Assembly: GCA_964542785.1 (NCBI GenBank)
Contig: CAZIUK010000003.1
Coordinates: 12,946 to 76,945, forward strand
Length of the DNA: 64,000 bases
Origin: an uncultured Planctomycetales bacterium
Lineage (GTDB): Bacteria > Omnitrophota > Gorgyraeia > Gygaellales > Profunditerraquicolaceae
Direction of reading: 5' to 3'
Shown here: positions 36,819 through 56,840 of the stretch, piece by piece
Numbering within the stretch: position 1 is the stretch's first letter
Layout: every line of letters starts with the position of its first letter
Program-made: the position numbers and the translations under genes
Notes under the pieces: generated by a model
What the model was told of the DNA's origin: nothing
What the model saw: only the letters and a program-made list of their open reading frames with translations
Databases searched by the model: none

Positions 36819-36872
36819 GGGGACAGCGACTATTACTATTTTTGCGCTATGATAAAAAAAGTCGCTGTCCCC
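36819..36872. repeat. REP-like inverted pair with a 30-nt spacer, overlapping the start codon of the next gene
   Basis: GGGGACAGCGAC (36819-36830) pairs with GTCGCTGTCCCC (36861-36872). The ATG at 36849 lies inside the spacer. Confidence 0.9.
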
Positions 36873-39338
36873 ATTTTGGTTGCGTGTTTTTTTGTTGTCG
36901 CAGCGCAGGCAGAGGTCTTGGTAATTAAAGCTCCCTTAACTTGGGGGCTTGATAAATCCGCAGAATACCCTTTGCCAAAAGTATTAAACGGTATTTATAC
37001 AACTGACCAGTTTGTAGCTACTGAAGGACAAGTTAGCGCTATTACGATGAATTGGGAATCAAGGGGCGCTATATCAATGGAGGTAAGCGCTGATAATGGG
37101 CTGCATTATACTCCGGTAATAAATGGCGTTCCTTTAGAGAGCGGTTTTGTAAGTGGAGATAGGATTCGCTGGCGGGCACAAGCGCTAAATGAGGATGCGC
37201 AGTTAACAGCGGTGAATCTTTCTTATTCTGATACATCCGGAGTAATAGGGGATTTTGGCCAGCCACTTTTAAGCGGATTTATGTACCGTAAAGAATTTAT
37301 AGTGCGCAATGATTCTAGAGAAGATTTATACAATTATCAGATGAAGCTAAGAATAGGGGAAAGTGAATTAGCCAAGGATGCTGATATCTGCCTTTCTAAA
37401 AAAGCAAAAGAGGATTTTAGCGATATAAGAATTAGCGCATCTGATGGTAAGCGTATTTTATCCTATTATCTTGAAAGCATAGAAGGCGAGCTTCCAGGAA
37501 AGCGCAGTGCTGTAATTTGGGTTAATATTCCTCAACTGCCAAAAGAAAAAGATTTAAAGCTTTACCTATATTATGGGAATCCGCAGGCTTTAAGTTTATC
37601 AAGCGGCGAGCAGACGTTTGATTTTTTTGATGATTTTAAAGACCCTGCCAAGAGCAATGAGAAATGGATAACCTATACAGAAAAAAACGGTACCTTGCAA
37701 TTAAAAAATGGGGAAATTAAGCTTGATGCAGCCGAAGCCATTACAAAAGATTTTCTTTTTAAAGAAGGAATTGTTGAGTATCCCGTAGAGATTGAGAGCG
37801 GTTTTGAAAACAGTTTAAACTTGCGTGTCCAGAATGGTAACTCTTATGATATTCCGCTTTGGTCGGGTTATTCTTCTTTATACAAAGGTGCAGAGCATTG
37901 CATTGCTGTAGAGGGGACAGTAAGAAATAATGACACAACTGCTCTACCTTCTTTTGCCGGAAATAGGTATTACTACCGTTTTGAATATTTTAATGGTAAT
38001 ATAGTCTTTAGCCGTTTTGATGCTTTGACTAAAGAAAAGCAGGCAGAGGCAGTCTTTAAGTCTGATTCTTTGCAAAAAATAGGCTATCTGTCTTTGCGTT
38101 CCGGAGGTGACGGGAATGGCAAGAATGTTATTCGTTTTGGCGCTATACTTGTGCGTAAAGCTGCTTTAATCAAACCGTATTTTGTTTCAGCAGGAAAAGA
38201 AGAGCAACTCTCTTTGCCTATTTTTTCCGGTACAACTCTTTCTTCTTTTGGGAGCCTTACTTTGGCCAAAGGGGCAATGAGCGGGCATTATATTTCAAGT
38301 AATATCCGAAGCGAAGACCAGATAAGGATCATGATCCCTGACTGGGATATTGATTCTCTTGGAGGAGAGTTTATCTTACATCTTTCTGCTGATGCCGGCG
38401 GGTCATATAAGAAAGGCTGCGAAAAGGGGAAGTATTATTATGCTTCAAAAAAGGATTTTGTCCCCGGGAAAAACTTAAAGATACGCATTGACCTTTTAAA
38501 AGGGGCAGGCTCCGAAGTCGAAAAAGTCGCTGTCCCCTTTGTGAAGGTGGAGCATAGGGCAGGAAAGGTAAATATTATTTCACCTAATGGCAGAGAGGTC
38601 TGGGAGGTAGGAAGCAGTAAGAAGATTAGCTGGAGTGCCTTGGATTACGATGAAACTTATCTTTTTGATTTAGCTTACTCTGTCAATGGAGGAAAGGATT
38701 ATATTGAGATTATAGCCAATAAAGATAATGATGGAGTTTATACTTGGGTTGTCCCGGATAAAATTACTAAAATCGCAAAGATAAAGATATCTGATTCTTT
38801 GGATAAAGGTATTTATGATCTTTCCGATGCTTATTTTTCTATTGTAGCTAGAGAAGATTTAAGCATTCAGGAAGAGAAAAAAGAAGAAGCAGGGGTAGTA
38901 GTGCAGGCAGCGCTAAAAGATAAAGCCAGTAAAGAGAGCAAAGATAAGAAAGATAAAGTTACTAAAGAAAGCAAAAAGAAGAAAGATAAAGTTAGCAAAG
39001 AGAACAAAAAGTTGCCGGGGAAAAATCTTTATGATCTTTTAATTAAGATAGGCGATAGCAGGTCTTCCTACAGCGAGGGGGATATTGTTATCTTAAGGCC
39101 TTCAGGTTATATTTGGAGCGTTGAAGAGAGGGAGAAGTTTTTGATTGCGCAGGTATACCTAACTGAAAAGCAGGCTGAGGAATTAACCTCTCCTTTAAAA
39201 ACAAAGGATGGAGAGATATTAAGCCGCAGGAAATATAGGATTAACTTGCTTAAGCAGGGGCTTAAAGGTTTGACAGGGTCAATTAAAAGGCCAAAGGGCT
39301 CTTTTGAGGCAGGGGTTATTGAGGATAAGGCAAATTAG
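36849..39338 (+). CDS. Large secreted protein with a DUF2341-like domain, beta-sandwich modules and a Lys-rich segment
   Basis: The start is set at MIKKVAVPILVACFFVVAAQAEV (signal peptide). The DUF2341-like pattern is YRKEFIVRN...DFSDIRISASDGKRILSYYLES...AVIWVNIPQLP...LYLYYGNPQA. An IISPNGREVWEVGSSKKISW module is present. The K-rich repeat is KDKVTKESKKKKDKVSKENKK. Confidence 0.6.
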   Translation: MIKKVAVPILVACFFVVAAQAEVLVIKAPLTWGLDKSAEYPLPKVLNGIYTTDQFVATEGQVSAITMNWESRGAISMEVSADNGLHYTPVINGVPLESGFVSGDRIRWRAQALNEDAQLTAVNLSYSDTSGVIGDFGQPLLSGFMYRKEFIVRNDSREDLYNYQMKLRIGESELAKDADICLSKKAKEDFSDIRISASDGKRILSYYLESIEGELPGKRSAVIWVNIPQLPKEKDLKLYLYYGNPQALSLSSGEQTFDFFDDFKDPAKSNEKWITYTEKNGTLQLKNGEIKLDAAEAITKDFLFKEGIVEYPVEIESGFENSLNLRVQNGNSYDIPLWSGYSSLYKGAEHCIAVEGTVRNNDTTALPSFAGNRYYYRFEYFNGNIVFSRFDALTKEKQAEAVFKSDSLQKIGYLSLRSGGDGNGKNVIRFGAILVRKAALIKPYFVSAGKEEQLSLPIFSGTTLSSFGSLTLAKGAMSGHYISSNIRSEDQIRIMIPDWDIDSLGGEFILHLSADAGGSYKKGCEKGKYYYASKKDFVPGKNLKIRIDLLKGAGSEVEKVAVPFVKVEHRAGKVNIISPNGREVWEVGSSKKISWSALDYDETYLFDLAYSVNGGKDYIEIIANKDNDGVYTWVVPDKITKIAKIKISDSLDKGIYDLSDAYFSIVAREDLSIQEEKKEEAGVVVQAALKDKASKESKDKKDKVTKESKKKKDKVSKENKKLPGKNLYDLLIKIGDSRSSYSEGDIVILRPSGYIWSVEEREKFLIAQVYLTEKQAEELTSPLKTKDGEILSRRKYRINLLKQGLKGLTGSIKRPKGSFEAGVIEDKAN
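38521..38537 (-). repeat. REP-like half-site inside the coding sequence
   Basis: AAAAAGTCGCTGTCCCC is translated in frame as EKVAVPF. Confidence 0.85.
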
Positions 39339-39379
39339 GCAAAGGTATAACTTTTCTTCCTATTAAGGGGGTTTTTAAG

Positions 39380-40987
39380 ATGAGAAAGAAGTTATTAGTC
39401 TTCTGGGTTTTATTTTTTGCTTTAGTATTTTTAAAGAGTACCTTTGCCAATAATATAACTGTAAGCAACCTTTCGCTGGATAACCTGGATTCAGCTTCAG
39501 GCACAGTTGAGATAAAGTTTGATTTAGATTGGGAGAATAGTTTTTCCCCGGAACAAGACCCTGATGCTACAACATTTGACGCAGCGTGGGTATTTGTTAA
39601 GTTTTACAGCGGAGATCCTAAGAAGTGGCATCATGCGCGGCTAAGCGAAGGCGGGACCTTCCAGTTGTATAGCACGGAGACAAAATTAGGGATTACCGAG
39701 GATAGAGTAGGTGTTTTTTGCCGCCCGGGAAACAACCAAACCCTTATCTGGAACTATCGTGATGCAGGAGTCAGCTTGGAAGAGGAGGATATAAAGATTA
39801 AGGTCTTTGCCATTGAGATGGTATATATACCAGAGGGAGAGTTTTATATAGGTTCCGGTATGCTAGAAGCTTATTCGTTTTATGACGCCTCTGATCCTAC
39901 TCGGAGTCAGCCTATTAAAATTACTGCCTCTTCTCCCTGGCTCTCTGATAGGGCTAATGGCGCTGAAGGCACAGGAATACCAGGAGATATAGCGTTTAAT
40001 AAGACTACCAGTCCTGGCTATGGTAATCTGCCAGTAGTAAGAACCCAATTAAACCCTAACTATCCTACAGGATACAAGGGGTTTTATATCGCAAAGTATC
40101 CGATCTCTCAGGGTCAATACAGGGATTTTTTAAATACCCTGACTAGGGAAGAGCAGCATAGGCTGGTTGGGAAAACTATAAGTGACACTAACGCATCTTT
40201 CTCACTTCCTGACAATATCCCTCCAGGAACAACAGAGGTAACTAATGTATATGTAATGGAGAATTCTCCCGCCTTAACTAGGCGTGTTTCAATAAGATGC
40301 GATAGCCAGATAGATGCGTATGCTCCGGTAACTTTTTACTGCGACTTAAATGGAAACGGTATTCCTAATGAAGAAGATGATGGAGAGTGGCTCCCGATGA
40401 GTGACATCTGGTGGCACTTTAACGGAGCATTCTGTGATTGGGCAGGGTTGCGGCCTATAACTGAATTAGAATATGAAAAAGCCTGCCGCGGTCCAGTTTA
40501 TCCTGTCCCAGGGGAATTGGCTCATGGGCTTTCTAACGTTAATTATCTTTCGGTTTCCGCTGCCCAGGTAGGTAACCCCGGGCGAATTGATGAGTATGCA
40601 ACTAATAACGGGAACTTTCGTTGGATATATGGTACCTCGTGGATAATGCGGGTAGGTTTTGCCGCGACCCCTAATTCTACCAGGGAATCAGCAATTTCTT
40701 CTTATTATGGGGTAATGGATATGACATCCCAGGTTAGTACTCCTGTTGTAAGTGTAGTTGCTCTTACTTTTGACGGACAACATGGAGATGGAGAGTTAGA
40801 CGCGTCAGTAAACACAGTGCATAATGTGCCTAACTGGCCTACAGATCATGCAGGCTGGCGCTCCGGTGACAGGAATTATGTGAGTGCGGTTTCGTACCGT
40901 TATTCTGATAGCAATCTGGATCCTTTAGTATGGAAAAAGAATCGTACTGGAAATAGCAGTATACGTCCTTGCCGGACTGCTTATTAG
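39380..40987 (+). CDS. Secreted protein with a formylglycine-generating-enzyme (SUMF1/FGE-sulfatase) fold domain
   Basis: 535 aa with a signal peptide. It carries MVYIPEGEFYIGSG, YIAKYPISQGQYRDFLN and GLRPITELEYEKACRG. Confidence 0.6.
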   Translation: MRKKLLVFWVLFFALVFLKSTFANNITVSNLSLDNLDSASGTVEIKFDLDWENSFSPEQDPDATTFDAAWVFVKFYSGDPKKWHHARLSEGGTFQLYSTETKLGITEDRVGVFCRPGNNQTLIWNYRDAGVSLEEEDIKIKVFAIEMVYIPEGEFYIGSGMLEAYSFYDASDPTRSQPIKITASSPWLSDRANGAEGTGIPGDIAFNKTTSPGYGNLPVVRTQLNPNYPTGYKGFYIAKYPISQGQYRDFLNTLTREEQHRLVGKTISDTNASFSLPDNIPPGTTEVTNVYVMENSPALTRRVSIRCDSQIDAYAPVTFYCDLNGNGIPNEEDDGEWLPMSDIWWHFNGAFCDWAGLRPITELEYEKACRGPVYPVPGELAHGLSNVNYLSVSAAQVGNPGRIDEYATNNGNFRWIYGTSWIMRVGFAATPNSTRESAISSYYGVMDMTSQVSTPVVSVVALTFDGQHGDGELDASVNTVHNVPNWPTDHAGWRSGDRNYVSAVSYRYSDSNLDPLVWKKNRTGNSSIRPCRTAY

Positions 40988-41036: not shown

Positions 41037-43922
41037 ATGGAAAAGAAAGAGAGAATAAACATAATAATTTCAGTAATTCTTATTCTTACGGCAGCATCCC
41101 TGTTTTTTCCGCTTTCTTCTGCCTTTGCCGGCCAATTTACCGGAGGTATCGGCGACGGAGATGCTTGTGCAGAGGTCTCTCTCTCCTCTCTGGCTACGGT
41201 TCCAGAAGTAGTTTCAAAGATTATCCGGGCAGGGGAGGAGATATTATCTATCAGCCGCTTAAATAACAAAGTTACCGTTGTCTTGACTAACCCCTACCCT
41301 AATAATAACCTTAAACCCGGCCAGTATATTGTGATTTATACCGGGATCTCTGGGACTCCTTCTTTTAACGGCAGATTCTTAATTGATAGCGTCTTAAGCC
41401 AAAGCGAGTTTACCTATCAGCAGGGAGGCAGTAATGAGTCAGGGTCTATAGGAAGCTTTAGTTTTGCCGGAGGAGATTTTAGTACCCTTACTAGCTGGGA
41501 GGCTGATTTACCGTATGATTTAGCCAGTACAGGCACGCCGCATATCGCCGTATGTTATAATGATTGGGTATCAGGGCTTAAAGATAACCTTGTGGTTGAA
41601 GGACATACAACCACCCCTAAATATTATATAAAAATTACTCCTTTTAGGCTTGACCGAAATACTGGGAAACCAAAGTCAGGCTTTTTTATTGCTCCTTCAA
41701 GCGGAAATGCAATAATCCTCCAGGATAATGCTGATTTGGTGCTTGATAGTATTGAAGCTACTGCTCCGGTAGTGATCAATGCCGGAGTAGCCCGGGTTGA
41801 TGATCGTTCCATCTATTCAAAGTTAGAGGTAGGTAGCGGCGCGACCTTGGCTCTTAGCGGGGCGAATTTTGGTAATTTAAAAGAGATGGTTATAAACGCA
41901 GGTTCAACCCTTGAATATCTTGACGGTGATTCTTCTTCTTTAGACAACCCAATAGCCTTGCTTAACCAGGATCACCATCATCTTAAGCTTTCTAAGGGGT
42001 TTTTTAAGTTACCGGCAGATAATTTTACTATTATGGGTAATATTGATATCGGATCACAGGCAAGCTTGGATGCGACAGAAAATAATTATAATATCAAAGT
42101 TGCAGGAGATTGGTTCTGTTTGGGGAATTTTAATTCGCGCGTGGCAGGAGTGGAATTTAACGGAACTAACCAAAAGATATCCGGGTCAACTTCTTTCTTT
42201 AATTTTAGAAAAGATAACTCAGGCCCTGGTACCTTAATCTTGACCTTTGAAAGCGCATCTCTTCAGACTGTCAAAGGCAGGCTTGACTTAGGAAGAGGAA
42301 GCAGGGAAAATTTTTTAAAGTTGCGCAGCAGCCAGGAGGGGAGTCAGTGGGAGCTTGACCTTCAGGGAGATAGCTTAGCCGGGTTTGTAAATGTAAAGGA
42401 TTCTGATGCTTCCAGGGGAAATAAGGTTTATGCTACAGCTTCTTTGGATTCCGGGAATAATGATAATTGGGAGTTTAACAGCGCTGAAGGAGGGCCTATC
42501 CAGTCTGTGAGCGTTTCTCCTTCAAGCGGGTATCGAAAGATCGGAGAGAGTGTAGGGTTTACAATTAAAATCAAGCCGCAATATTCTAACAGCACTCTTT
42601 TGTATTATGAATCTTATTTTGGAAACCATTTAATTGAGCTAACCAGGGAAGAAGACGGTATAACTTTTAATGGTTCCTATATAGTTAAAGAGGGTGATCC
42701 TGATATAGCTGATCCTTCTTTGTCAGGCAGGCTTGAGATTATGCCTTTTGGGGGAGCTACATCTCTTTTTAGCGCGATTTTATCTAAAACCACTCTGTAT
42801 ATAGATGCTAATAAGCCGGTAGTAAGTAGTGGAAACATCTTAGTTACCACTAGTCCTGATAATGGTGAATTTTATCGCGCTGGCGAAGATATTACTCTTA
42901 CCTGGGATAATTCTGCTTCTGGAGACGGGAGCCATAATCCGGATATTGCCCTAGTTACCGCTGATTTTTCAGCTTTAGGCGGAAGTTCTGCTGTAGAGAT
43001 GTCAGAGAGCGAAGGTATTTATACCGCAAGCTATACAGTTTCTGCTGAGAGTATAAATGGTACCCATGATATCTTAGTTACTGTTACGGATAAGGCCGGC
43101 AACCAGACCTCTCTTGCCGCCCCTACAAAGGTAAGAGTTGTCTCTGGCTCTCTTACGCTTACCAGCCCCACTACCCCGGTAAGCTATGTTGCCGGAACAA
43201 CCCAGAAGATAACCTGGAATGCTTCTGGAGATATAAGTACGGTAAATTTAAAATATTCCATTGATTCAGGACAAAGTTATAAGACCATTAACACTGTAGG
43301 GTCTTTGACCGGGGGGAATACTTGTGACTGGGTAGTTCCTAGCGATATAACTTCTAAGGCCCGGGTTAAGGTTGAGGATACTGCCATTAAGCAGGTTTAT
43401 AGCGCCTCAAGCGTAGATTTTAGCATTGTTTATCCTTCTGTTACTATTACCAGTCCTAATGGAGGGGAGTCTTGGACAGCAGGCTCTAAACAGAATATTA
43501 CTTGGACAACGAATTCACCTTTAGTGACTCATCTTAAACTTGAATATTCTGTTGATGGAGGATCAAGCTGGAATTTAATTGCCGCAGCAGTTCCTAATAC
43601 AGGATCATATTTATGGAAACTGGATAACCTTTTTGCTGTAGATACTGTTAGGGTAAGGGCGACAGGCTTAGCCCGTAATCAAATGTTAACTTTAGGCGGA
43701 AGCGCTATGGACAAAGTTTCTTCTGGCGCTTGGCTGGAGGATAACTATAAGGTTTTAGCCATAGAGGTCTTAAGTGATTTTAACGCAGGAGACACTCTGC
43801 TGATATCTGGTCTAAAGTTCGGTAATTTTATTGTCTCTCCTGCGAATAACCTGAAGTTAAGCGCTGGAAGTAATTCTGTTATAGATGATAAGAAGATTAC
43901 AGTTATAGCGCCTTCTGTTTAG
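41037..43922 (+). CDS. Large secreted protein with repeated Ig-like/beta-sandwich modules
   Basis: 961 aa with an N-terminal signal/anchor. Repeated modules of the type ITSPNGGESWTAGSKQNITWT and LTSPTTPVSYVAGTTQKITWN are present. Confidence 0.55.
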   Translation: MEKKERINIIISVILILTAASLFFPLSSAFAGQFTGGIGDGDACAEVSLSSLATVPEVVSKIIRAGEEILSISRLNNKVTVVLTNPYPNNNLKPGQYIVIYTGISGTPSFNGRFLIDSVLSQSEFTYQQGGSNESGSIGSFSFAGGDFSTLTSWEADLPYDLASTGTPHIAVCYNDWVSGLKDNLVVEGHTTTPKYYIKITPFRLDRNTGKPKSGFFIAPSSGNAIILQDNADLVLDSIEATAPVVINAGVARVDDRSIYSKLEVGSGATLALSGANFGNLKEMVINAGSTLEYLDGDSSSLDNPIALLNQDHHHLKLSKGFFKLPADNFTIMGNIDIGSQASLDATENNYNIKVAGDWFCLGNFNSRVAGVEFNGTNQKISGSTSFFNFRKDNSGPGTLILTFESASLQTVKGRLDLGRGSRENFLKLRSSQEGSQWELDLQGDSLAGFVNVKDSDASRGNKVYATASLDSGNNDNWEFNSAEGGPIQSVSVSPSSGYRKIGESVGFTIKIKPQYSNSTLLYYESYFGNHLIELTREEDGITFNGSYIVKEGDPDIADPSLSGRLEIMPFGGATSLFSAILSKTTLYIDANKPVVSSGNILVTTSPDNGEFYRAGEDITLTWDNSASGDGSHNPDIALVTADFSALGGSSAVEMSESEGIYTASYTVSAESINGTHDILVTVTDKAGNQTSLAAPTKVRVVSGSLTLTSPTTPVSYVAGTTQKITWNASGDISTVNLKYSIDSGQSYKTINTVGSLTGGNTCDWVVPSDITSKARVKVEDTAIKQVYSASSVDFSIVYPSVTITSPNGGESWTAGSKQNITWTTNSPLVTHLKLEYSVDGGSSWNLIAAAVPNTGSYLWKLDNLFAVDTVRVRATGLARNQMLTLGGSAMDKVSSGAWLEDNYKVLAIEVLSDFNAGDTLLISGLKFGNFIVSPANNLKLSAGSNSVIDDKKITVIAPSV

Positions 43923-47000: not shown

Positions 47001-50000
47001 ACCGGATCATTTAAGGTTTGTTTCTGATATACCTACTGCGGATGCCAAGCAGGTCTCTGTGCAGTTTAACCTGCCTCAGCTTGCTGCTGTTGACCGTTAT
47101 GATAATATACTTACTAATGACTACGGAGCTGCTGCTTATTCCGGGAATAAGGCTATAACCTATTCCTTAAGCGGTCAAAGAGACGCTCCCGACGGAAATG
47201 GGACAGATCTTTTTTATTCCGACAATGTAGCTTCGGCGAAGGTAAATTTTACTAACGGCCTCTCAACAAATGCCCTTAGCGCTAAGTTATACCGGGCGCA
47301 GAATACGGTTATATCCCCGGCGGATAGTAATCTTCCCAGCGAGAGTCTTCCTTCTAACGAGATTATTGTTAACCCGGCTACAGCGACAAAACTGGTCTTT
47401 AAACAGCAGCCTTCTGGCAGTGCGATAGTCAACTCTGCCTTTTTACAACAGCCGGTAGTAGCTATCCAGGATCATTACGGCAACCAGACTTTGGATATAT
47501 TCCCGATAAAGCTCTATGATTCTATCCGTTCGGAATTTCCTTATGCCGATGCTCCTGGAATTTTAACTTCTGACCACGAGGATAATACATTAAATGCCGT
47601 TGCAGGCGAGGCGTCTTTTAGCGGGGTTGAATATAATGCCTCAGGTGTAATATACCTGTATGCCCAAGGATTAGGCGCAGGCAGCAATGTTAACCCTGTT
47701 TTTTCAAATGAGATAACCCTGGCTACTTCCGTCACAACCATGGTTAAGGCCGCGGATACTCCTGTAGCTGACTTTAACCTAACTCCTACCAACGATACAT
47801 TGGAAAAGAAGTTTAAGGTTTTAAAGTTTAAGGTAACTGATGCCGGAGAAGATAAGACTCCTACATTGATCGATCAGATTAAAATAGCAGTATCCGGCAC
47901 CGGGGGTCATGCTTCTACAGATATTGCCTGGGCAGGTTTATATGTAGGAGAAGAAAAGGTGGCGGATGCTGCTTCTATAACAGATGACTTTATTACTTTT
48001 GGGCAGGAGCCTAACAGCGATTCTACTGCAGGTATCTACAGCGTGCCTGATAGTAGCTCTGTTGAATTTACCGTGTATATCCATATGAAGCCGGATAAGT
48101 TATCCGCCCTTGACGGCCAGTCGTATATCTTTACTACTGATGAAGATAGGGTAGGGGTTGACAGAGGGGCTTCTTCGCAAATGACGGCAAGCTCAGGCAG
48201 TATAGCCGCTGTTACCGGAACTATTAAAGTTGATATGACGCATCTTGAGATTGTAACTGAAGAAGGAGCCTCAACATTAACTGTCTCTGCTGGGGTGCCG
48301 GTAGAGCTGTTGGTGCGCGCTACCGACGCTAATAAGAACATAGATAGCGATTATAATGGTAGCCATACCTTAGTCTTCTCAGGGTTAAATAGTGTTGGTA
48401 CCCTTTACCCAAAGATAGAGAGTGTCCTTTTTGGCTATAATATAACTATTTCTTTTTCAGGAGGTATTTCTGCTTCTCAAGGAGTTACCCTTACTCCTTA
48501 TAAGAGCGAGGAAGGTATAATCGTTGTCCAGGAATCAGGAAAGTCTTACAGTCAGCATGGATTAACTGCCACGATTAATGCGGGTGCTGCCAGTAATATT
48601 GCCCTATTAAGCGGCAATAACCAATCTGGAAAGATAGCCGCGCCTCTACTCCAGGCTTTTGTGGTGGCAGTTACCGATGTTTATGGTAATGGTATTGGAT
48701 CTGGGACCGGGGTTGATTTTGCTATTCTTAGCCAGCCTGAAGGTGCAACAGGAGCTTTATTAAGCACTATTTCTGGTGTAACTGATGCTAATGGCCATGC
48801 CTTTACAACCCTGACTGTAGGTAGCCTTGCTGGTGATTATCAGGTGACTGCTTCTTCAGCGGGGTTATCTGGTTCACCGGTAACTTTTATCGCTACGGGT
48901 TTACTCCCTAGTGCAATTCAGCTTTTAAGCGGAGATAACCAGTCTAAACAGGTAGTTTCTGCATTAGATGACCCTCTGGTAGTTAAAATAGTTGATTCAA
49001 CAGGTATTCCTATTCCTCGTGAGAAAGTGGATTTTACTATATCTTCTTATCCTGAAGGCGCGGTTGGGCAAGCGCTCTTGTCAGGCTCAGTGGTAACTGA
49101 TGATAACGGCCAGGCACAGACCAGCTTTACTTTAGGAGATAAGGCAGGGGTTTACAAGGTAACTGTTAATTGCGGTTCGCTTACTGCGGTTGATTTTAAT
49201 TTTAATGCTACTGCCAGGGCTCCTTATCAGGTAGCCTTAAGAGGTCCGGTTTCAGTCAAGGCAGGGGAGGTCTCTACCAAATTTACCGTCTCCATAGAGG
49301 ATGAATACAATAATCCTTCTAATTTATCCCAGGCAACTGTATTTTCATTAACCAATAATCCTTCTCGGCCAAGCGGAATATTTTATTCAAATAGCGACGG
49401 GACGTTAGCAATTAATTCTCTGACTGTAGCTAAGGGTACGAATAGCGCCAGTTTTTACTATAAGGATACAATAACTGGCATGGCGAATATTACGGCAACC
49501 CGTACTAGCGGGCAGTCTTTAATCCAGGGAATATCAAGCCAGGAAGTTACGGTTATCCCTTCGGATGCCTATCGTTTTACTATTGTTGGCAATACTGATA
49601 CTATAGAGACAGGGGAAAGTAAAGTATTGACCATAACCGCTTATGATAATTTAGGCAATGTAAAGAGCGATTATACCGGGAATGTTAATGTTCTCTTCTC
49701 TGGGGCTAGTGCTTCCCCAGCTCCTTCATCAAAGAAAGCCACAGCTTCTAACCATCTAAGTCAGGATATTGAATTTGGAAAGACTACCAGCCTAAACTTT
49801 ATTAATGGTGTAGCTGTTTCAACCTTGAAGTTTTATAAAGTAGAGGATGTGAATATAAAGATAACCAGCGGTTCAATAGTTACTGCTGAAGAGGATAGTC
49901 TAAGCTTTACCGTCAGGCATGGTCAGGCAGATCACTTGAAATTCGGCGGGAATCTTCCTGCTTTGCAGGAGGCGGGGGTAGAGTTTGATTTTGAAACTAC

Positions 50001-53000
50001 GCTGCAAGCGGTTGACCTTTATGATAATATCTGCAACGGCCTTAATGGTTCTTCCGGATTCTCTGGTTCAAAGAAGGTTACCTGGAGTTTAAGCGGAGCT
50101 TCTGATGGACCTGAGGGGAATGTTATTGATGAGTTTGTCAGTCCTGTAGAGTTTAGCTTAGGGGTATCCACTACTACTTTAAGCGCAAAGCTCTACCGTG
50201 CACAGGATACCACCATTACCGCTGCTATTTCTGCTTTAATAGGGGTAAATGTTGCTTCGAATACAATTACAGTTGAGCCTGGGGCAGTAGCAAAGCTAAG
50301 GTTCTCTCAGGAGCCTGCGGCTTCTTCCATTACCAGTCAGGCTTTAGAGGTACAGCCTAAGGTTGCGGTAAGTGATCAGTATGGTAACCCTGTTTCTACT
50401 ACCTCGGCTAACGTAAGCATTGCTGCTTCAACTAGCAATGATTCATTTGTACCTGTGGTTAATGGAGTATTAAGCGCTATTGGAGGACTTACAGCATCTA
50501 CAGTTAACGGAGTAGCTTCTTTTAGCGGAGTAACCTATAATTATCCTGAGACTATTTACCTTCGCGCCACAGTCGCAGGGGTAAGCCTGGTGCCGGTATT
50601 CTCTTCAGGTATAACATTTAGTACCGCTCAGGAAACAGCTCTCTCTGTTACTACACCAGGGCCTACTGCTATTTCTTCTCTTGCCTATACTACTGCAGAC
50701 AGAGTTGGGGTGCTTAATTTTAGGGTTGTTGATGGGGGGACTGATGGTTTCTCCAGTAAGATACGCCAGGTGATTGTAAAGCGCAACACCTCTGATACTA
50801 CCGGCGGGTGGACAAATTACCTGCAGGGAGTCTATATTACCGATGGAGCAACGCAGGTGGTTGGGAGGATAGAGGATGATCAGATTATTTTTGGCTTGGG
50901 GGGAAATGATATTTATGATGTTACTAACGGCACGACTAAGAATTTTACTGTGAGCGTATTTTTGAAGAATCCGCTCCCCTTAGATTCAGATAATAAGGTT
51001 TTGGGTTTCAAGCTTGATCCGGCTACAGATATAGTATTTGGTTCACCTAGCTCTAGGCTTGTCTCTTCTTCTGTGATGAGTTCAACTCCAAAGATCTCGG
51101 TTGTGGCTACTGATTTTGCTATTTTTGGCTCTCCTACCATGAATGCCGGAGATACCCAGCCGATTACGCTTAAGGCCGTAGATATACTGGGCAATATTGA
51201 TAAGGATTATGTTGGAGAAAAAACTTTAGTTTTTAGCGGACCAAGTATAACGAGTAAAGGAAATGAGCCCATCGAGACGACCTCAAATATTCCTTTTGGT
51301 ACGGATACCCCGGTTTCTTTTACCAACGGCCAGAGCTCATCTACCGTCGGGATTAAACTCTTTAAAGCCGAAACTGCTTATGTTAAGGCAGCCGATATTT
51401 CTGCGGGGATAACTACTCCTAATCAGAAAGCCTTGATTGTTACGGTTTACGGCGGAGCTGCCACGGGTTTAAGTTGGCTTACCCAGCCGGTGGGCGTAGT
51501 TGTCGAAAATGCCCCGTGGAAAGAGTTTAGTATTTCAGTTACCGATGCTTATGGCAATACCTCATCCAGCAGTACTGAGGTAACCGTAGCTCCTTCTAAC
51601 GGCAGTATCTCTACAGGTTCGCAGGCAACAGTTACCGCTCAATCGGGAATAGCCACATTCTATAATTTTGCGGTAAATGGTCTTAATGATGAAGAGAAGA
51701 TCACTTTAAGCGCATCAGCAAGCGGGGTAGCCGGTACCGGTCCTTCCAATGAAGTGCAGGTATTTAAGGTTTATAAGGTAACGGTCTTTGTAAAAGATTA
51801 TACTAGCGCTAGTAATCTTACTGAATGCGCTTTGGATGCCACATCTAACGGAGTAGTCGTAGATGGTTTTCCAAAGACAGGCAACAGCCCGTTTACTTTT
51901 AACTTGCCCTACGGGACGTATACCTTCCGGGTCTCTAAGGAAAAATATGTTGATGAAAACACCGAAAAGACAGCTGGTGTTGCCGCGGATTACCTGGACG
52001 GAGTATATGATGCAAAGATTACCTGGTCTTTGACTGCTACAAGTTTAGTTGAGGCTACTGCTGATTATAAAGCACAGAGCGCTTTTGTTTATGATGAAAG
52101 TACTGACAAGCTTTCTATCCGCGTCTGGCTGGAGAAGCGCGGGAAGATGGTAGTTAATGATGATGTTAATATTTTAGGTAATGCGGTTGTAGATATCTAT
52201 AATGATTCTACCGGGGGATGGCTTAAGTCAATTACCTTAGAGCCTCCTGCTGCGTCTAATACTGTAAATGGAGTTTATTTTAAGGAGATACCTAATGTAG
52301 TTTCTGTTGACGATGATTTTAACCTTGTTGCAGGCAAGACCTATTTTGCCCGTGTTGTCATTAATTATGGTGGGCTTACTGGTACAGGCAGAAGTTATGA
52401 AGGAGGAGCGACCTTTAGTGTTACTATAAACGAGAATCTGCGCGCAGTTACTAATTCTATTCAGACGGTTGCTACTAATATCGCCGGGCAGACTGCGGCA
52501 ATTCAAAAGACGATAAAGGATGAGATAGAAGGCCAGATTACTAGTGTTGTTGTGCCTAAGATTACTGATGTAAAGACTGAGACATCTAAGATTCTTTCTG
52601 CCACAGGCACAGAGTCTTTGCAGGATAAGATTGCCGAGGTAAAAACACAGGTAGTCCAGGAGGTTCAGCCGCATATTAAATCCGGTATATTAAATGGAGA
52701 GACTGCGGTAAGAACTGGCTCTAAACTAGCTGTTCGTTATCGAACTGATTCTGGACTTTCTCCAACGATATCCGTATATAGCCCCAAGAACAATCTTCTT
52801 ATCTCCGACAGGGCTATGGCAGAGATAGGGATAACGGGAATCTATGAGTATAATGTAACATTTTTACCGGCTTGGGGGAGGGGATCCTTTACTATTGTTT
52901 GTTCAGAGCCGGTAAAAGGAACAGCTGATGCCTTTGTGCTTAAGGTAAGTGATTCGGATATAGAGGATATATCAAGTAGTGTCTCTGCTGTTTTAGGTAG

Positions 53001-53370
53001 CACCTCTGGCATTACCAACCTTAAGAAAGTAACCGAAACCTTAAACGCGCAGTTTAGTGATATGGATAAGGCTATTGCCCAAATCAGCAAGAATATTACT
53101 GGAAAGGTTGAAGAGGTAAAAGGGGCTGCCGTTGAACTTGCCGGCGTATTTAAGCAGCTTGAGGATATGAGTAATACCATTAAGAGCTTAGGAGGGACAG
53201 CCGGTATAAATATTGATAAGATTTACGAGGTATCTAAAGATAAGCAGGAGGATATTAGTTATATTAAGAATAAGAGCGAAGAGCTTAAGGCGGCGATGGA
53301 GCTTAACCAAAAGATGATAGAGAATGTTGCTAAGAAGCCAGTAGTTCAAACCTGGTTTGAATTCAAGTAA
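44023..53370 (+). CDS. Giant (3115 aa) secreted surface protein with Big/Ig-like repeats and a coiled-coil-like C-terminus
   Basis: It has a signal peptide. Invasin/intimin-type Big-like units are visible (LLSGNNQSGKIAAPLLQAFVVAVTDVYGNG...DYQVTASSAGLSGSPVTF). A 643-aa module occurs twice almost identically, and a diverged third copy lies at about 49.5-51.5 kb. A carboxypeptidase-regulatory-like segment is also present (YKVTVFVKD...GTYTFRVSKEKY). Confidence 0.75.
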   Translation: MKKILKVLLIGGLALWGYFESASLALGANLSISSASDQTFISEEAPKDAQAITITDVSGSGIIVSSGLRILIPDSFGMQWHGAMLRDDSVTDTSNADFSVIAAQIISAGVTLESSDAGATGSVEVNFTSINSIPADAKIVITFPDNFVFNSKSPTLASSATMSGDFSVSITGQVITVTRNSTSASSAGSHLITLTNIKNPIRPGTTGAYSLKIQTLAGFDIDVNNDLAASTIVPAATSRITLNSPDDMTAGAARAAYTLTRYDEYGNLSTQEEEVFDISTTSTGDNAVFYNDATASEAGNIITSITIPQGSSSVNFWYDDTKMGAYTIAAIKSDQPEITVSDGINVKHAEPDHLRFVSDIPTADAKQVSVQFNLPQLAAVDRYDNILTNDYGAAAYSGNKAITYSLSGQRDAPDGNGTDLFYSDNVASAKVNFTNGLSTNALSAKLYRAQNTVISPADSNLPSESLPSNEIIVNPATATKLVFKQQPSGSAIVNSAFLQQPVVAIQDHYGNQTLDIFPIKLYDSIRSEFPYADAPGILTSDHEDNTLNAVAGEASFSGVEYNASGVIYLYAQGLGAGSNVNPVFSNEITLATSVTTMVKAADTPVADFNLTPTNDTLEKKFKVLKFKVTDAGEDKTPTLIDQIKIAVSGTGGHASTDIAWAGLYVGEEKVADAASITDDFITFGQEPNSDSTAGIYSVPDSSSVEFTVYIHMKPDKLSALDGQSYIFTTDEDRVGVDRGASSQMTASSGSIAAVTGTIKVDMTHLEIVTEEGASTLTVSAGVPVELLVRATDANKNIDSDYNGSHTLVFSGLNSVGTLYPKIESVLFGYNITISFSGGISASQGVTLTPYKSEEGIIVVQESGKSYSQHGLTATIVPAATSRITLNSPDDMTAGAARAAYTLTRYDEYGNLSTQEEEVFDISTTSTGDNAVFYNDATASEAGNIITSITIPQGSSSVNFWYDDTKMGAYTIAAIKSDQPEITVSDGINVKHAEPDHLRFVSDIPTADAKQVSVQFNLPQLAAVDRYDNILTNDYGAAAYSGNKAITYSLSGQRDAPDGNGTDLFYSDNVASAKVNFTNGLSTNALSAKLYRAQNTVISPADSNLPSESLPSNEIIVNPATATKLVFKQQPSGSAIVNSAFLQQPVVAIQDHYGNQTLDIFPIKLYDSIRSEFPYADAPGILTSDHEDNTLNAVAGEASFSGVEYNASGVIYLYAQGLGAGSNVNPVFSNEITLATSVTTMVKAADTPVADFNLTPTNDTLEKKFKVLKFKVTDAGEDKTPTLIDQIKIAVSGTGGHASTDIAWAGLYVGEEKVADAASITDDFITFGQEPNSDSTAGIYSVPDSSSVEFTVYIHMKPDKLSALDGQSYIFTTDEDRVGVDRGASSQMTASSGSIAAVTGTIKVDMTHLEIVTEEGASTLTVSAGVPVELLVRATDANKNIDSDYNGSHTLVFSGLNSVGTLYPKIESVLFGYNITISFSGGISASQGVTLTPYKSEEGIIVVQESGKSYSQHGLTATINAGAASNIALLSGNNQSGKIAAPLLQAFVVAVTDVYGNGIGSGTGVDFAILSQPEGATGALLSTISGVTDANGHAFTTLTVGSLAGDYQVTASSAGLSGSPVTFIATGLLPSAIQLLSGDNQSKQVVSALDDPLVVKIVDSTGIPIPREKVDFTISSYPEGAVGQALLSGSVVTDDNGQAQTSFTLGDKAGVYKVTVNCGSLTAVDFNFNATARAPYQVALRGPVSVKAGEVSTKFTVSIEDEYNNPSNLSQATVFSLTNNPSRPSGIFYSNSDGTLAINSLTVAKGTNSASFYYKDTITGMANITATRTSGQSLIQGISSQEVTVIPSDAYRFTIVGNTDTIETGESKVLTITAYDNLGNVKSDYTGNVNVLFSGASASPAPSSKKATASNHLSQDIEFGKTTSLNFINGVAVSTLKFYKVEDVNIKITSGSIVTAEEDSLSFTVRHGQADHLKFGGNLPALQEAGVEFDFETTLQAVDLYDNICNGLNGSSGFSGSKKVTWSLSGASDGPEGNVIDEFVSPVEFSLGVSTTTLSAKLYRAQDTTITAAISALIGVNVASNTITVEPGAVAKLRFSQEPAASSITSQALEVQPKVAVSDQYGNPVSTTSANVSIAASTSNDSFVPVVNGVLSAIGGLTASTVNGVASFSGVTYNYPETIYLRATVAGVSLVPVFSSGITFSTAQETALSVTTPGPTAISSLAYTTADRVGVLNFRVVDGGTDGFSSKIRQVIVKRNTSDTTGGWTNYLQGVYITDGATQVVGRIEDDQIIFGLGGNDIYDVTNGTTKNFTVSVFLKNPLPLDSDNKVLGFKLDPATDIVFGSPSSRLVSSSVMSSTPKISVVATDFAIFGSPTMNAGDTQPITLKAVDILGNIDKDYVGEKTLVFSGPSITSKGNEPIETTSNIPFGTDTPVSFTNGQSSSTVGIKLFKAETAYVKAADISAGITTPNQKALIVTVYGGAATGLSWLTQPVGVVVENAPWKEFSISVTDAYGNTSSSSTEVTVAPSNGSISTGSQATVTAQSGIATFYNFAVNGLNDEEKITLSASASGVAGTGPSNEVQVFKVYKVTVFVKDYTSASNLTECALDATSNGVVVDGFPKTGNSPFTFNLPYGTYTFRVSKEKYVDENTEKTAGVAADYLDGVYDAKITWSLTATSLVEATADYKAQSAFVYDESTDKLSIRVWLEKRGKMVVNDDVNILGNAVVDIYNDSTGGWLKSITLEPPAASNTVNGVYFKEIPNVVSVDDDFNLVAGKTYFARVVINYGGLTGTGRSYEGGATFSVTINENLRAVTNSIQTVATNIAGQTAAIQKTIKDEIEGQITSVVVPKITDVKTETSKILSATGTESLQDKIAEVKTQVVQEVQPHIKSGILNGETAVRTGSKLAVRYRTDSGLSPTISVYSPKNNLLISDRAMAEIGITGIYEYNVTFLPAWGRGSFTIVCSEPVKGTADAFVLKVSDSDIEDISSSVSAVLGSTSGITNLKKVTETLNAQFSDMDKAIAQISKNITGKVEEVKGAAVELAGVFKQLEDMSNTIKSLGGTAGINIDKIYEVSKDKQEDISYIKNKSEELKAAMELNQKMIENVAKKPVVQTWFEFK
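44711..48576 (+). repeat. Near-perfect in-frame tandem duplication, 2 x 1929 bp
   Basis: Copy 1 spans 44711-46639 and copy 2 spans 46640-48568. The shared 8-mer CCACGATT sits at all three boundaries (44711, 46640, 48569). I found one mismatch (A44730 versus G46659, synonymous). The translated copies are identical. Confidence 0.95.
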
Positions 53371-53390: not shown

Positions 53391-53449
53391 GGGGACAGCG
53401 ACTTTTTTGATAAAAAGTCGCTGTCCCCCTAGAAAAAGTCGCTGTCCCC
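53391..53449. repeat. REP-like cluster (one forward and two reverse copies) after the giant gene
   Basis: GGGGACAGCGACTTTTT-tgat-AAAAAGTCGCTGTCCCC forms a 17-bp stem. A second AAAAAGTCGCTGTCCCC follows at 53433-53449. Confidence 0.95.
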
Positions 53450-53495
53450 TTTAAAAGGGTGACATATTTGAAAAATATGGTAAAATAAAATCAAG

Positions 53496-54200
53496 ATGAT
53501 AAAAATACTATTGAAGGGTAGGTTTAATTTTATTCTAATTATCTTTATTGCGTTATTTCTTTTTTTTGTTCCTGCGGAAGCTGGCATTACTATGCGCCTT
53601 ATGGCAGTAAACCCGGCTGATTCAGAGCAAACCGTTCCGATAAAGGTTTATCTTCCTGTAGAAGTCAAGCCCGAAGATATAATATATAAAGACGATTTAG
53701 ATGTAGCTTATGATACCCAGCAGGGAAGTTATTATGTTTTTGGAGAATTCCTCTTAGCCCCTAAAGAGGTATTAGAGAAAGAAATAGAGATAAAGGATAT
53801 CTGGGTTATAGATTTAAGCGAGGTTGAAATGTTACGCTTAGAGGCTAAGGATATGCTGAAGTCTTTTAAGAAGACAAAGTATTATGAACGCGCCCAGCTT
53901 ATTTATAATGGGATAGATAAAAAGCTTAAAGAGGTAGAAGAGGAGCAAGATTTGTCTTCTGCCAGCCCTGCTTATAAGATTTCAAATTATAGAAATTCTT
54001 TAAGTTTGATTGATTCTGTCAAGGCCGATCTTGTCTCAGCTAAAACCCTTTTATCTGAGGCTTTACCTAAAGGTATGGCTAAGCTTACTTGGGGAGTTAT
54101 TTTGTTTATTGTGCTTTTTTTAGGGGTTTTAGGGGGAGGATCTTTTTTTATTTGGCAACACCAGTCAAGGCTTGAATCTGAAGAGAAGACCAAGGAGTAA
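53496..54200 (+). CDS. Membrane-anchored hypothetical protein
   Basis: 234 aa with an N-terminal signal/TM and a C-terminal TM (LTWGVILFIVLFLGVLGGGSFFIW). I recognised no motif. Confidence 0.5.
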   Translation: MIKILLKGRFNFILIIFIALFLFFVPAEAGITMRLMAVNPADSEQTVPIKVYLPVEVKPEDIIYKDDLDVAYDTQQGSYYVFGEFLLAPKEVLEKEIEIKDIWVIDLSEVEMLRLEAKDMLKSFKKTKYYERAQLIYNGIDKKLKEVEEEQDLSSASPAYKISNYRNSLSLIDSVKADLVSAKTLLSEALPKGMAKLTWGVILFIVLFLGVLGGGSFFIWQHQSRLESEEKTKE

Positions 54201-54266
54201 ATAAAATAAATACAAATATTATCAGGACAGATAGGGCAAGCCCTTTTAATACCTAAACGTTAATTA

Positions 54267-55046
54267 ATGAAAAGGGAATTTGTTATTTTATTAGTAATTT
54301 TATTTTTTTTTGTGCATAGTTTAGGCGCGCAGGCTTCAGAAGGGCTTTGGAATACTGAAAAGACTCAGCATTTTATAATATATTACCAGTCTGCCCAGGC
54401 AAGTTTTATTCGGGATTTGGCTTATGCCGCTGAAAGGTATTATAACAGCATTATTGATGAGCTTGGTTTTAGGCGTATGGATTTTTGGAGTTGGGATAAC
54501 CGGGCTAAAATCTATATATACAATGGATTTGAAGATTATAAAAAAGAGGCTGACCGTAAAGATTGGTCTGGTGCGGTTGTTTTTGTGGATACCCGTACTA
54601 TTAAAAGTTTTTTAGGGCAGTTTGATTTTTTTGATTCTATCCTTCCGCATGAGATGACCCATATAATATTCAGGGAATTTGTGGGTAGAGAAGCAATCCT
54701 TCCTTTGTGTATAGATGAAGGAGTTGCAAGCTCTCAGGAGAAAGGCCATTTGCATGAGAGGTTATCTTTGATAAAGAAACTTATTTTGCAGGGAAAATAT
54801 ATGCATTTTGATAAATTATTCAATATCTACCAGGCTAAGGGTATAAGCCCTCAGGAGTTTTATGCCCAGTCAGCCTCGCTCGTTGTTTTTTTAATAAAAC
54901 AATATGGAAGAGAACGTTTTGTTGATTTTAGCCGTAAATTAAGGGACGGAATGCTTTGGGATAAGGCTTTATTAAGCGTATATAAGTTTAAGAGCTTTGC
55001 AGATATGGAGAATGAGTGGAAAGATTTTATTTTGAGAAATTTCTGA
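54267..55046 (+). CDS. Secreted gluzincin-type (peptidase MA-like) metallopeptidase
   Basis: 259 aa with a signal peptide. HEMTH is followed after 18 residues by E (HEMTHIIFREFVGREAILPLCIDEG), fitting HExxH-x18-E. Confidence 0.6.
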   Translation: MKREFVILLVILFFFVHSLGAQASEGLWNTEKTQHFIIYYQSAQASFIRDLAYAAERYYNSIIDELGFRRMDFWSWDNRAKIYIYNGFEDYKKEADRKDWSGAVVFVDTRTIKSFLGQFDFFDSILPHEMTHIIFREFVGREAILPLCIDEGVASSQEKGHLHERLSLIKKLILQGKYMHFDKLFNIYQAKGISPQEFYAQSASLVVFLIKQYGRERFVDFSRKLRDGMLWDKALLSVYKFKSFADMENEWKDFILRNF

Positions 55047-56835: not shown

Positions 56836-56840
56836 AAAAT

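Follow-up and report, generated by a model that had tools for sequence, protein, structure and literature searches.

A gene block conserved across Omnitrophota encodes a giant beta-sandwich protein and its putative tail-anchor subunit

The DNA analysed here is a stretch of 64 kb (contig CAZIUK010000003.1 of assembly GCA_964542785.1), referred to as the window, and its block of six genes at 36849-55046 encodes four large secreted-type proteins, a 234-residue membrane protein and a peptidase. The largest of the four, a giant protein of 3115 residues, belongs to a family with a fixed C-terminal module, and the 234-residue protein appears, from sequence comparison of relatives, to be its tail-anchor subunit. 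Taken as a whole, the block is fairly likely the core of a phylum-wide Omnitrophota cell-surface fibre or adhesin locus with a tail-anchored giant.

Omnitrophota are ubiquitous, uncultured, ultra-small bacteria, which are thought to be predators or episymbionts, and to our knowledge their mode of attachment to other cells has not been established. The comparison defines a conserved, phylum-wide candidate attachment locus and ties it to hypervariable lectins driven by diversity-generating retroelements (DGRs), to twin secretins and to cyclic di-GMP (c-di-GMP) signalling. It also defines a large unannotated family, with at least 300 clusters (50% identity) that contain its C-terminal module, and provides two new family definitions for annotation, covering proteins now without a Pfam or NCBIfam match. 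A gene fusion yields a concrete and testable anchoring mechanism for this family. Large Omnitrophota surface proteins encoded beside type II secretion system (T2SS) or type IV pilus (T4P) genes were already known, and the anchor family is new as far as the accessible text of the earlier studies goes; the main advance lies in having identified the anchor subunit together with the phylum-wide locus architecture.

The giant protein carries a variable passenger and a conserved C-terminal module

All genes of the window lie on the + strand, and the GC content is about 0.39, with 0.44-0.45 within the giant gene. The open reading frame (ORF) coordinates agree with a preliminary description, made from the sequence alone, which had listed consecutive + strand genes for proteins of 829, 535, 961 and 3115 residues followed by the 234-residue protein and the peptidase. 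The description had counted four giant secreted proteins. The N-termini of all four are of the basic-hydrophobic-AxA type and Sec-like as judged by eye, but only the 3115-residue protein is truly giant.

The giant gene (44023-53370, + strand) encodes a signal peptide, a variable beta-sandwich passenger and a conserved C-terminal module of about 540 residues (about residues 2579-3115; 51757-53367, + strand). Unrelated passenger regions share this one module in the family alignment (A1). An AlphaFold 2 (AF2) model that covers the C-terminal 576 residues (mbee9cfa75aee) arranges the module as two beta-sandwiches, a helix of about 79 residues, another beta-sandwich, a helical region of about 125 residues and a terminal strand. 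The predicted local distance difference test (pLDDT) score is 80-93 in the sandwiches and below 50 in the tail and the helices (264-342 and 441-565 of the model), and the last 11 residues are unstructured when modelled alone. Within the module, conservation in A1 is highest in a beta-sandwich, …SGILN…RYRT.TGLSP…GIYEY…GWG.GDFTV.CSE.TKGTVDALVI, and at the extreme C-terminus, AKKPVVQTWFEFK-COOH. The near-invariant terminal segment KKPVVQTWFEFK (53332-53367, + strand) is proposed as a strand that docks onto the anchor subunit. Translation confirmed that the window's giant terminates in ...VVQTWFEFK, as had been described.

A search for the C-terminal region in other genomes had been suggested, and it was productive. 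Thirteen word-indexed homologues with differing passengers were found for the C-terminal 576 residues, and all of those with a named source are Omnitrophota. When the module was used as a profile against 1.84 billion cluster representatives (clusters at 50% identity), 817 proteins matched, 300 of them at E<=1e-30. Most of these proteins are 2,000-7,000 residues long and have the module at or near the C-terminus. The ending W[FY]E[FY][KR] is present in 89 of 159 family representatives and many others end in a P-[IV]-V-x-x-W-[FLM]-E-like sequence, the family consensus being ...P-V-V-x-x-W-[FY]-E-[FY]-[KR]-COOH. These alignments place the giant in a large family of proteins of 2-7 thousand residues, in which beta-sandwich or immunoglobulin (Ig)-like passengers, varying and shuffled among lineages, are joined to a fixed C-terminal module. 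Pfam gave only one weak PEGA match for the window's giant and no Big/Ig domain, so the Big/Ig arrays of the preliminary description were not recovered there; an Ig-like character is suggested by the AF2 model, by generic Ig and macroglobulin fold matches and by a Big_1 match in a relative.

The passenger contains a near-perfect tandem duplication of 2 x 1929 bp (44708-46636 and 46637-48565, + strand), in which the only mismatch away from the repeat ends is at 44730. The copies encode two 643-residue units, residues 230-872 being identical to 873-1515. A third, diverged copy at about residues 1740-2520 was found by windowed BLAST, from which the repeat map was drawn; whole-protein BLAST of the giant against itself returned the diagonal only. 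In L013, a 93%-related metagenome-assembled genome (MAG), the contig has its start within copy 2 (window position 48251), which would fit a break of that assembly at this repeat. The duplication stems either from an expansion that is very recent or from a miscounted repeat in the assembly, and the length of 3115 residues holds only if the assembly has the right number of copies.

The 234-residue protein is a candidate anchor subunit of the giant

The gene at 53496-54200 (+ strand) encodes 234 residues, comprising a signal peptide, a six-stranded beta-sandwich, three helices, a C-terminal transmembrane (TM) helix and a charged tail. The signal-like N-terminal helix and the C-terminal TM helix were seen both in the sequence and in the AF2 model (m52949b5170ba, pLDDT 79), which has six beta-strands at residues 30-100, three helices at 107-189 and the TM helix at 193-233. 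Neither Pfam nor NCBIfam gave a match for this protein. It has 290 homologues, with identities of 62-100% among the 120 matches listed, and the TM helix and its flanks are strongly conserved (alignment A2).

To place the gene in its context, one genome per GTDB species was scanned with the 234-residue alignment and genes were mapped by blastp, which gave 39 loci (L-numbers, L005-L072, denote related loci from other genomes and metagenomes). A separate gene for the 234-residue protein lies downstream of an ORF with the giant's C-terminal module in 30 of the 39 loci, directly adjacent in 28, and the terminal motif ends 24 of the 26 scorable ORFs upstream of it. In seven loci (L042 and L046-L051), the giant and the 234-residue protein form one ORF. 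The fused junction reads …NVANEPV[IV]QTWYEY-[GR]S-[VI][VI]LKAI.INPS…YDTQQGSYY…TM…, whereas in the split forms AEA precedes the signal cleavage site and the mature N-terminus, which is the first strand, begins GITMRLMAVNP. The giant's last strand is thus joined in the fused forms to the mature N-terminus of the 234-residue protein through a linker of two residues. Such a linker would be tolerable only if both termini are neighbours in the assembled structure. The seven fused forms constitute one clade in a neighbour-joining tree of the anchor domain, for which one event suffices, and midpoint rooting favours fusion.

Because of its adjacency to giants and the single-polypeptide fusion in one clade, the 234-residue protein is read as an anchor. 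From the Rosetta-stone fusion, the adjacency and the conservation, we infer that the giant's terminal strand docks onto or complements this subunit and that the subunit tethers the giant to the membrane. The preliminary description had regarded anchoring as not evident from the sequence and the 234-residue protein merely as a bitopic membrane protein. Both points are revised by the comparison of relatives, which pairs this protein with the conserved C-terminal module of the giant; one clade has the two fused.

Some variation was observed around the pair. A small ORF is inserted between the giant and anchor genes in L006-like cases (L006:2191-2553) and in L032 (2658-3218), and the L006 insert is a 120-residue 23S_rRNA_IVP/bAvd-like protein. 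Some genomes hold two giant-plus-anchor cassettes (L018, L022, L025 and L029 versus L024, L021 and L036). One of them adjoins the ATP-synthase operon and has the peptidase, and the second lies elsewhere without the peptidase; the second-copy cassettes L018 and L029 carry a DGR.

Known sorting signals were not found

The preliminary description had seen no recognisable anchor motif, and no known sorting domain turned out to have been overlooked in the six proteins of the block. The C-terminal domain (about 80-100 residues; Por_Secre_tail / TIGR04183) of the type IX secretion system was absent from Pfam (E<=0.01) and NCBIfam (E<=0.1) matches, as were Autotransporter, YadA_anchor and IAT_beta, and the C-terminal module was modelled as sandwiches plus helices rather than a barrel. 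No HemolysinCabind/RTX match was obtained, and type I secretion system (T1SS) genes were lacking among the scanned window ORFs, meaning those of at least 100 residues. No LPXTG/sortase model matched, and the tail of the 234-residue protein reads PKG...TM...WQHQSRLE without LPXTG. PEP-CTERM gave no NCBIfam match and no exosortase was present among the scanned window ORFs.

Two further candidates were rejected. The layout PKG-TM-charged tail and a weak TIGR03015 match of an upstream ATPase had suggested that the 234-residue protein might be an exosortase/PEP-CTERM-like cleavable signal, which was set aside for want of a PEP motif model match and of an exosortase gene. The giant as an S-layer protein was set aside on the ground that its only anchor is an inner-membrane helix.

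The locus is conserved across Omnitrophota

Of the 39 loci with the 234-residue gene, 34 are titled Omnitrophota, including Ca. Makaraimicrobium. The other five, four third party annotation (TPA) MAGs labelled Planctomycetia or Planctomycetales and one 'Parcubacteria' MAG, have the same synteny and are probably mislabelled. For the DUF2341 protein encoded by the first gene of the block, 81 homologues were found, of which about 55 are full length, and all of those with a named source are Omnitrophota (alignment A5). A metagenome scan with the DUF2341 alignment added 19 further loci of the family.

The conserved gene order runs from an ExeA-like ATPase through twin secretins, a two-component system, the DUF2341 protein, a protein with a formylglycine-generating enzyme (FGE)/C-type-lectin fold, the giant, the anchor and an MA-clan peptidase to a response regulator (RR)-GGDEF protein, ATP synthase and PilB/GspE(MshEN)-PilC-PilM. 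Around DUF2341 genes of several lineages, the order is MerR, AAA22, p219, secretin(s), kinase, regulator, DUF2341, (FGE) and giant. Gene order is kept down to about 32-38% identity of the DUF2341 protein. The two overlapping loci L052 and L053, which carry the same giant of 6171 residues and a DUF2341 protein of 38% identity, show the whole order from the secretins to the giant, anchor, peptidase, GGDEF protein and ATP synthase. Synteny with the secretin genes, on which the preliminary description had made its interpretation depend, was also present: the secretin module (ExeA-like ATPase/secretin) adjoins the block in 12 of the 13 DUF2341-family lineages for which 6 kb or more of upstream sequence is available. 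These comparisons support the block as a functionally linked surface or adhesion locus and agree with the earlier suggestion of a surface or adhesion apparatus.

The accessory proteins suggest an exposed, ligand-binding surface

The DUF2341 gene (36849-39338, + strand) encodes a secreted-type protein of 829 residues from the MIKKVAVP start; a longer ORF from 36768 has 856 residues. Pfam matched DUF2341 (PF10102) at residues 216-301 of the 856-residue ORF with 80.1 bits against a gathering score of 23.4. The 829-residue protein is laid out as DUF2341, one SPNGGE-type Ig module, a Lys-rich linker and a C-terminal domain. Earlier work has put DUF2341 forward as part of type IV pilus-like systems and as a tip adhesin (PMC4858521; PMC11809585), and literature searches pairing DUF2341 with Omnitrophota found nothing. 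The proposal would suit a block of type IV pilus accessories, that is, PilY1/MshQ-like tip or shaft adhesins, with the DUF2341 protein and the giant riding on a pilus that the flanking secretin and PilB/PilC/PilM genes would assemble, instead of making a separate fibre. N_methyl/T2SSG/T2SSJ pseudopilin genes just upstream of the same secretin module in L009/L010 and the MshEN-type ATPase downstream of the block also fit a pilus. None of the four large proteins has a class III (prepilin) N-terminus, however, the giant has its own membrane anchor, and pilin genes are missing from the scanned window ORFs. Such a pilus role for the block is quite unlikely.

The second gene (39380-40987, + strand) encodes a secreted-type protein of 535 residues with an FGE-sulfatase match of 39 bits (cut-off 23.3), which covers only profile positions 35-132 of 255. 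FGE-like proteins occupy the orthologous position in L011, L052, L054 and L072. Downstream of the FGE-like gene, L018 and L029 have bAvd, a template repeat (TR) and a reverse transcriptase (RT). The final ~130 nt of the FGE-like gene make up the variable region (VR), and because every VR/TR mismatch falls at a TR adenine, these two loci are bona fide DGRs. L052, L063 and L072 have bAvd plus RT beside FGE-like genes, as judged from gene content, TR/VR pairs having been compared in L018 and L029 only. The retroelements lie between the FGE-like and giant genes (L018:1-2600, L029:1-2650 and L052:13359-19792). In the 64-kb window there is no TR matching the 3' end of the FGE-like gene, no bAvd and no RT, and the window's gene is therefore a fixed variant. 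DGR variable regions map to C-type-lectin folds (PMC8144416). Since this is also the DGR target in relatives, the FGE-fold protein is best read, by analogy, as a C-type-lectin-fold ligand-binding protein. The DGR-diversified genes of the relatives resemble Treponema TvpA and Legionella LdtA (PMC8144416), whereas the window's gene has no DGR.

The third gene (41037-43922, + strand) encodes a secreted-type protein of 961 residues with an N-terminal 'head' and Ig-like SPNGGE modules. In Pfam, these modules (Kre9_KNH/Big_7) scored at or around threshold in the 961-residue protein and below threshold in the 829-residue protein, and Big_13 was likewise near threshold in the former. Thus DUF2341, part of the FGE fold and, near threshold, the SPNGGE modules of the preliminary domain list were recovered. 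Residues 10-484 of the 961-residue protein match the N-terminal head of giants in L062, L071 and L072, and residues 580-900 match the repeat unit of giants in L035, L038, L042, L043 and L048. Therefore, parts of the passengers are shuffled among genes, and the anchor module stays fixed.

These features bear on another explanation, in which the giant and anchor remain inside the envelope as a periplasmic scaffold or spacer tethered to the inner membrane, and the neighbouring genes are linked to them by genome order and not by function. It draws on the facts that the only anchoring element is an inner-membrane-type helix, that no outer-membrane-crossing device is found within the protein, and that the ATP-synthase operon is equally syntenic, so that gene order is weak evidence of function. 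However, the hypervariable passengers have been shuffled among lineages and show recent tandem duplications, and DGR-diversified lectin-fold proteins are encoded alongside, all of which is typical of exposed ligand-binding surface proteins under diversifying selection. At least 2,500 residues of beta-sandwiches would also be far longer than the width of the periplasm. A purely periplasmic scaffold is accordingly improbable.

The last gene of the block (54267-55046, + strand) encodes a secreted MA-clan (gluzincin) metallopeptidase of 259 residues. Peptidase_MA_2 matched with 59.8 bits against 32.4, and HEMTH, 18 residues and then E were read directly from the sequence, in line with the secreted HExxH-x18-E peptidase described before. 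The HExxH-x18-E motif is kept in all 28 orthologues of at least 200 residues, beside split as well as fused forms, and the orthologues appear from their N-termini to keep the signal peptide. PDB sequence searches gave no match for the DUF2341 protein, the FGE-like protein or the peptidase. Within the block, 51 promoter-like sites were counted against a shuffle mean of 41.2 ± 6.0 (about 1.6 standard deviations above), and the 13 terminator-like sites were fewer than the shuffle mean of 17.7; these counts therefore give no operon information.

A possible mechanism and the points against it

The tail-anchored surface fibre would work as follows. Sec would export the giant and the 234-residue protein, and the giant's terminal strand would complete or dock onto the six-stranded sandwich of the latter. 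The C-terminal TM helix of the anchor would then tether the giant to the cytoplasmic membrane, its short charged tail being cytoplasmic. The conserved stalk, consisting of helical bundle, sandwich, helical region, sandwich and the ~79-residue helix, might measure roughly 30 nm and could span the periplasm. The variable Ig arrays would be displayed outside the outer membrane, most likely via the co-conserved twin secretins, for which the ExeA-like ATPase and its bitopic partner would form the assembly module heading the locus. The DUF2341 and FGE/C-type-lectin-fold proteins may be accessory ligand-binding proteins of the same apparatus, and the secreted MA-clan peptidase may mature, trim or shed the fibre. 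The HisKA_3/LuxR two-component pair would control expression, and c-di-GMP may be coupled to activity via the RR-GGDEF protein and the MshEN-domain PilB/GspE ATPase. The apparatus would probably serve to attach the cell to its prey or host. Both secretin passage and peptidase processing are argued from gene neighbourhood.

Several observations weigh against this mechanism. The stalk length was roughly estimated from the sizes of helices and domains in models of low confidence, in which the helices have pLDDT <50. Physical contact between giant and anchor is suggested indirectly, by fusion, adjacency and conservation, and fold searches with the module and anchor models returned only generic helical-bundle or Ig-like matches. 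An alpha-helical tail anchor implies the inner membrane of a diderm, which leaves the crossing of the outer membrane by at least 2,500 residues unexplained, and we know of no precedent for a secretin that is occupied by one tethered polypeptide chain. About ten loci, all second copies among them, lack the peptidase, and L058 has DUF2341 plus giant without a nearby secretin. The conserved order includes the ATP-synthase operon, so that some of the synteny may be genome-architecture inertia rather than function. Pilins, pseudopilins and a prepilin peptidase are missing from the scanned window ORFs, while the secretin (two proteins, 146 bits each), GspE/PilB and GspF/PilC components of a T2SS or T4P are present.

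The T2SS-like neighbours point to a further alternative. The large proteins could be classical T2SS-type cargo, which would fold in the periplasm, be held transiently at the inner membrane by the 234-residue protein acting as a staging or chaperone receptor, and be released by dissociation or by the MA-clan peptidase. A pseudopilus powered by the downstream GspE/GspF/PilM genes would push the cargo through the secretins, leaving the proteins either free or in loose association with the surface or with prey. Sec signal peptides on all large proteins, the twin secretins and ExeA-like module conserved upstream and GspE/GspF/PilM downstream all agree with such a route. A secreted peptidase that is catalytically intact by motif beside both fused and split forms would meet the need for cleavage, especially in the fused clade, and West-Roberts et al. 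(bioRxiv 10.1101/2023.11.21.568195) link Omnitrophota giants to T2SS-like loci. Against transient binding, the fused clade indicates that a permanent covalent link to the TM helix is viable, conservation of the TM helix and its flanks is unusually high for a receptor that binds only transiently, the peptidase is missing from second-copy cassettes, and no pseudopilin gene is found among the scanned window ORFs. Release as T2SS cargo is thus a minor possibility compared with permanent tethering.

A bolder form of the tethered fibre can also be imagined. The giant might be a single-chain pilus-like fibre, tail-anchored in the inner membrane via the 234-residue subunit, with its stalk crossing the periplasm and running through a dedicated twin-secretin channel to a prey-binding tip outside. 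Synteny is the evidence that makes such a secretin-threaded fibre possible, and it is rather doubtful. If true, it would be a new way to display protein across a diderm envelope, and the MA-clan peptidase and c-di-GMP could control its retraction or shedding.

Comparison with known giant proteins and adhesins

Much larger Omnitrophota proteins flanked by T2SS/T4P genes are reported by West-Roberts et al. and by Nielsen & Lui (bioRxiv 10.64898/2026.06.07.730766). Those proteins and the present giant come from the same phylum, are very large, secreted or membrane-associated and built with adhesion-type repeats, and recurrently have secretin, GspE and GspF neighbours with c-di-GMP components nearby. 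They differ in that the reported genes are at least 25 kb (or the proteins at least 10,000 residues) and encode multiple TM helices and SecA-DEAD, dockerin or enzyme domains. In contrast, the family described here has 2-7 thousand residues, a single conserved C-terminal module, a tail-anchor subunit that is either separate or fused, and a fixed place between the twin-secretin module and the ATP-synthase operon. The accessible portions of both studies make no mention of the C-terminal module, the 234-residue partner or the DUF2341/FGE/DGR association.

The pattern that these studies describe downstream of giant genes was also seen at the start of the window (7-15780), about 30 kb upstream of the block. 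The first ORF, read from position 7 although its frame is open from base 1, has a truncated Peptidase_M54 domain at its start and ends at 3423. It is followed, within 1-15780, by two PilZ genes, a solute-binding protein with ATP-binding cassette (ABC) permeases, a major facilitator superfamily (MFS) sugar transporter and glycoside hydrolase family 2 (GH2)-like genes; the two PilZ genes, the solute-binding protein with its permeases and GH2 are the elements shared with the downstream-of-giant pattern of West-Roberts et al. Given this resemblance, a much larger gene probably ends at position 3423.

Multi-thousand-residue Ig-like arrays on a diderm surface are known from LapA/MpIBP-type T1SS adhesins, SiiE and SprB, and retention of the LapA type is controlled by the dedicated protease LapG and by c-di-GMP (LapD). 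LapA-type adhesins are anchored by a plug in a TolC-like pore, whereas an inner-membrane helix on a partner subunit is proposed here; LapG is a cysteine protease and the present peptidase an MA-clan metalloprotease; and the block has neither an RTX/T1SS signal nor, among the scanned window ORFs, T1SS genes. The proposed junction also resembles donor-strand complementation in chaperone-usher pili. In the models, the six-strand Ig-like sandwich of the anchor could plausibly be completed by the giant's terminal ...VVQTWFEFK strand, and the two strands are contiguous in the fused clade. Unlike chaperone-usher pili, the block has no chaperone or usher genes and would form a single heterodimeric junction and not a polymer, complementation being a proposal here.

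The secretin module is comparable to GspA/GspB (ExeA/ExeB) or MshM systems in the succession of an AAA_22 ATPase, a small bitopic protein and secretin(s), with a pilotin-like tetratricopeptide repeat (TPR) segment on secretin 2. It differs in two tandem secretins, a short ATPase (274 residues) and the lack of a detected peptidoglycan-binding domain, and its NCBIfam equivalog scores are all under the cut-offs.

Genes flanking the block

The secretin module begins with a MerR/HspR-like helix-turn-helix (HTH) protein of 75 residues (29359-29586, + strand; NCBIfam HspR-like E=7e-7, below cut-off). Its orthologues have MerR Pfam matches in L008 and L011, and its position is kept in L054, L062, L065-L067 and L071. 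The ExeA/GspA/MshM-like AAA_22 ATPase of 274 residues follows (29591-30415, + strand; Pfam 65 bits). It scores 172 bits with TIGR03015, under the cut-off of 324.5, and is 52-81% identical in relatives, always upstream of the secretin(s). A bitopic membrane protein of 219 residues with one hydrophobic segment (30418-31077, + strand) is a candidate GspB/PilP-like secretin partner. It has only a faint PilP match (E=0.018), and its position is kept in all secretin-module loci.

Secretin 1 (31074-32609, + strand; 511 residues) has Pfam Secretin (146 bits), Secretin_N and STN/N0 matches, and its best NCBIfam matches, PilQ and GspD, are both under cut-off. Secretin 2 (32572-34611, + strand; 679 residues as called) has Secretin (146 bits) and TPR_1/TPR_11 matches, and its C-terminal TPR extension is similar to Tgl and PilW, which are pilotin/assembly lipoproteins. 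L009/L010 have a single secretin, followed by the TPR part as a gene of its own (248 residues). The GTG start of secretin 2 at 32572 is probably over-extended and the true start after 32665, because a pair of repetitive extragenic palindromic (REP)-like sequences lies at 32630-32665, after the secretin 1 stop.

The two-component pair comprises a HisKA_3 sensor histidine kinase (34490-35965, + strand; Pfam HisKA_3 plus HATPase_c) and a LuxR/GerE-type response regulator (35968-36609, + strand; Response_reg plus GerE). The kinase is kept between the secretins and the DUF2341 gene in relatives. The regulator, detected in 17 distinct related loci, is directly upstream of the DUF2341 gene in 10; the other seven have one to three ORFs or a remnant in between, such as a toxin-antitoxin pair (L008), a small ORF (L052), a Y1 transposase (L061/L066) or larger gaps (L072).

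Downstream, an RR-GGDEF diguanylate cyclase (55736-56614, + strand; GGDEF 155 bits plus Response_reg) directly follows the peptidase or anchor gene in most loci. The ATP-synthase operon (56599-61599) is unusual in order and content, with epsilon, c, a 237-residue protein, alpha, gamma and beta. The 237-residue protein matches both the b and delta (OSCP) subunits, and no a-subunit gene is apparent in the window. In nearly all relatives, this operon sits between the adhesin block and the PilB/PilC genes. The window closes (61602-64000, + strand) with a PilB/GspE-type ATPase with an MshEN N-terminus and a PilC/GspF platform gene, which begins at 63228 and is cut by the window end. The ATPase has a Pfam T2SSE match of 433 bits plus MshEN, and the PilC/GspF gene a T2SSF match of 79 bits. 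Binding of c-di-GMP by the ATPase is predicted from an MshE-type motif (NF053729, 53 bits against a cut-off of 38), and the NCBIfam equivalogs GspE (559 bits) and PilB (558 bits) are both under their cut-offs. PilM follows PilC/GspF in L038, L040 and L051.

The REP-like 12-mer GGGACAGCGACT occurs in 14 copies in the window where 0.07 would be expected, often in inverted pairs between genes. They lie at 32630-32665, 36659, 36820-36871, 38525, 53392-53448, 55077, 55699 and 59282-59337, and one overlaps codons 4-8 of the signal peptide of the DUF2341 gene. They also flank a truncated gene for a REP-associated Y1 (tyrosine) transposase (55297-55650); L005, L013 and L019 have a full-length copy in the corresponding place. 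Further upstream in the window, the ribonucleotide reductase large subunit (19404-23003) is interrupted at residues ~149-544 by an intein with Intein_splicing and LAGLIDADG_3 homing endonuclease domains.

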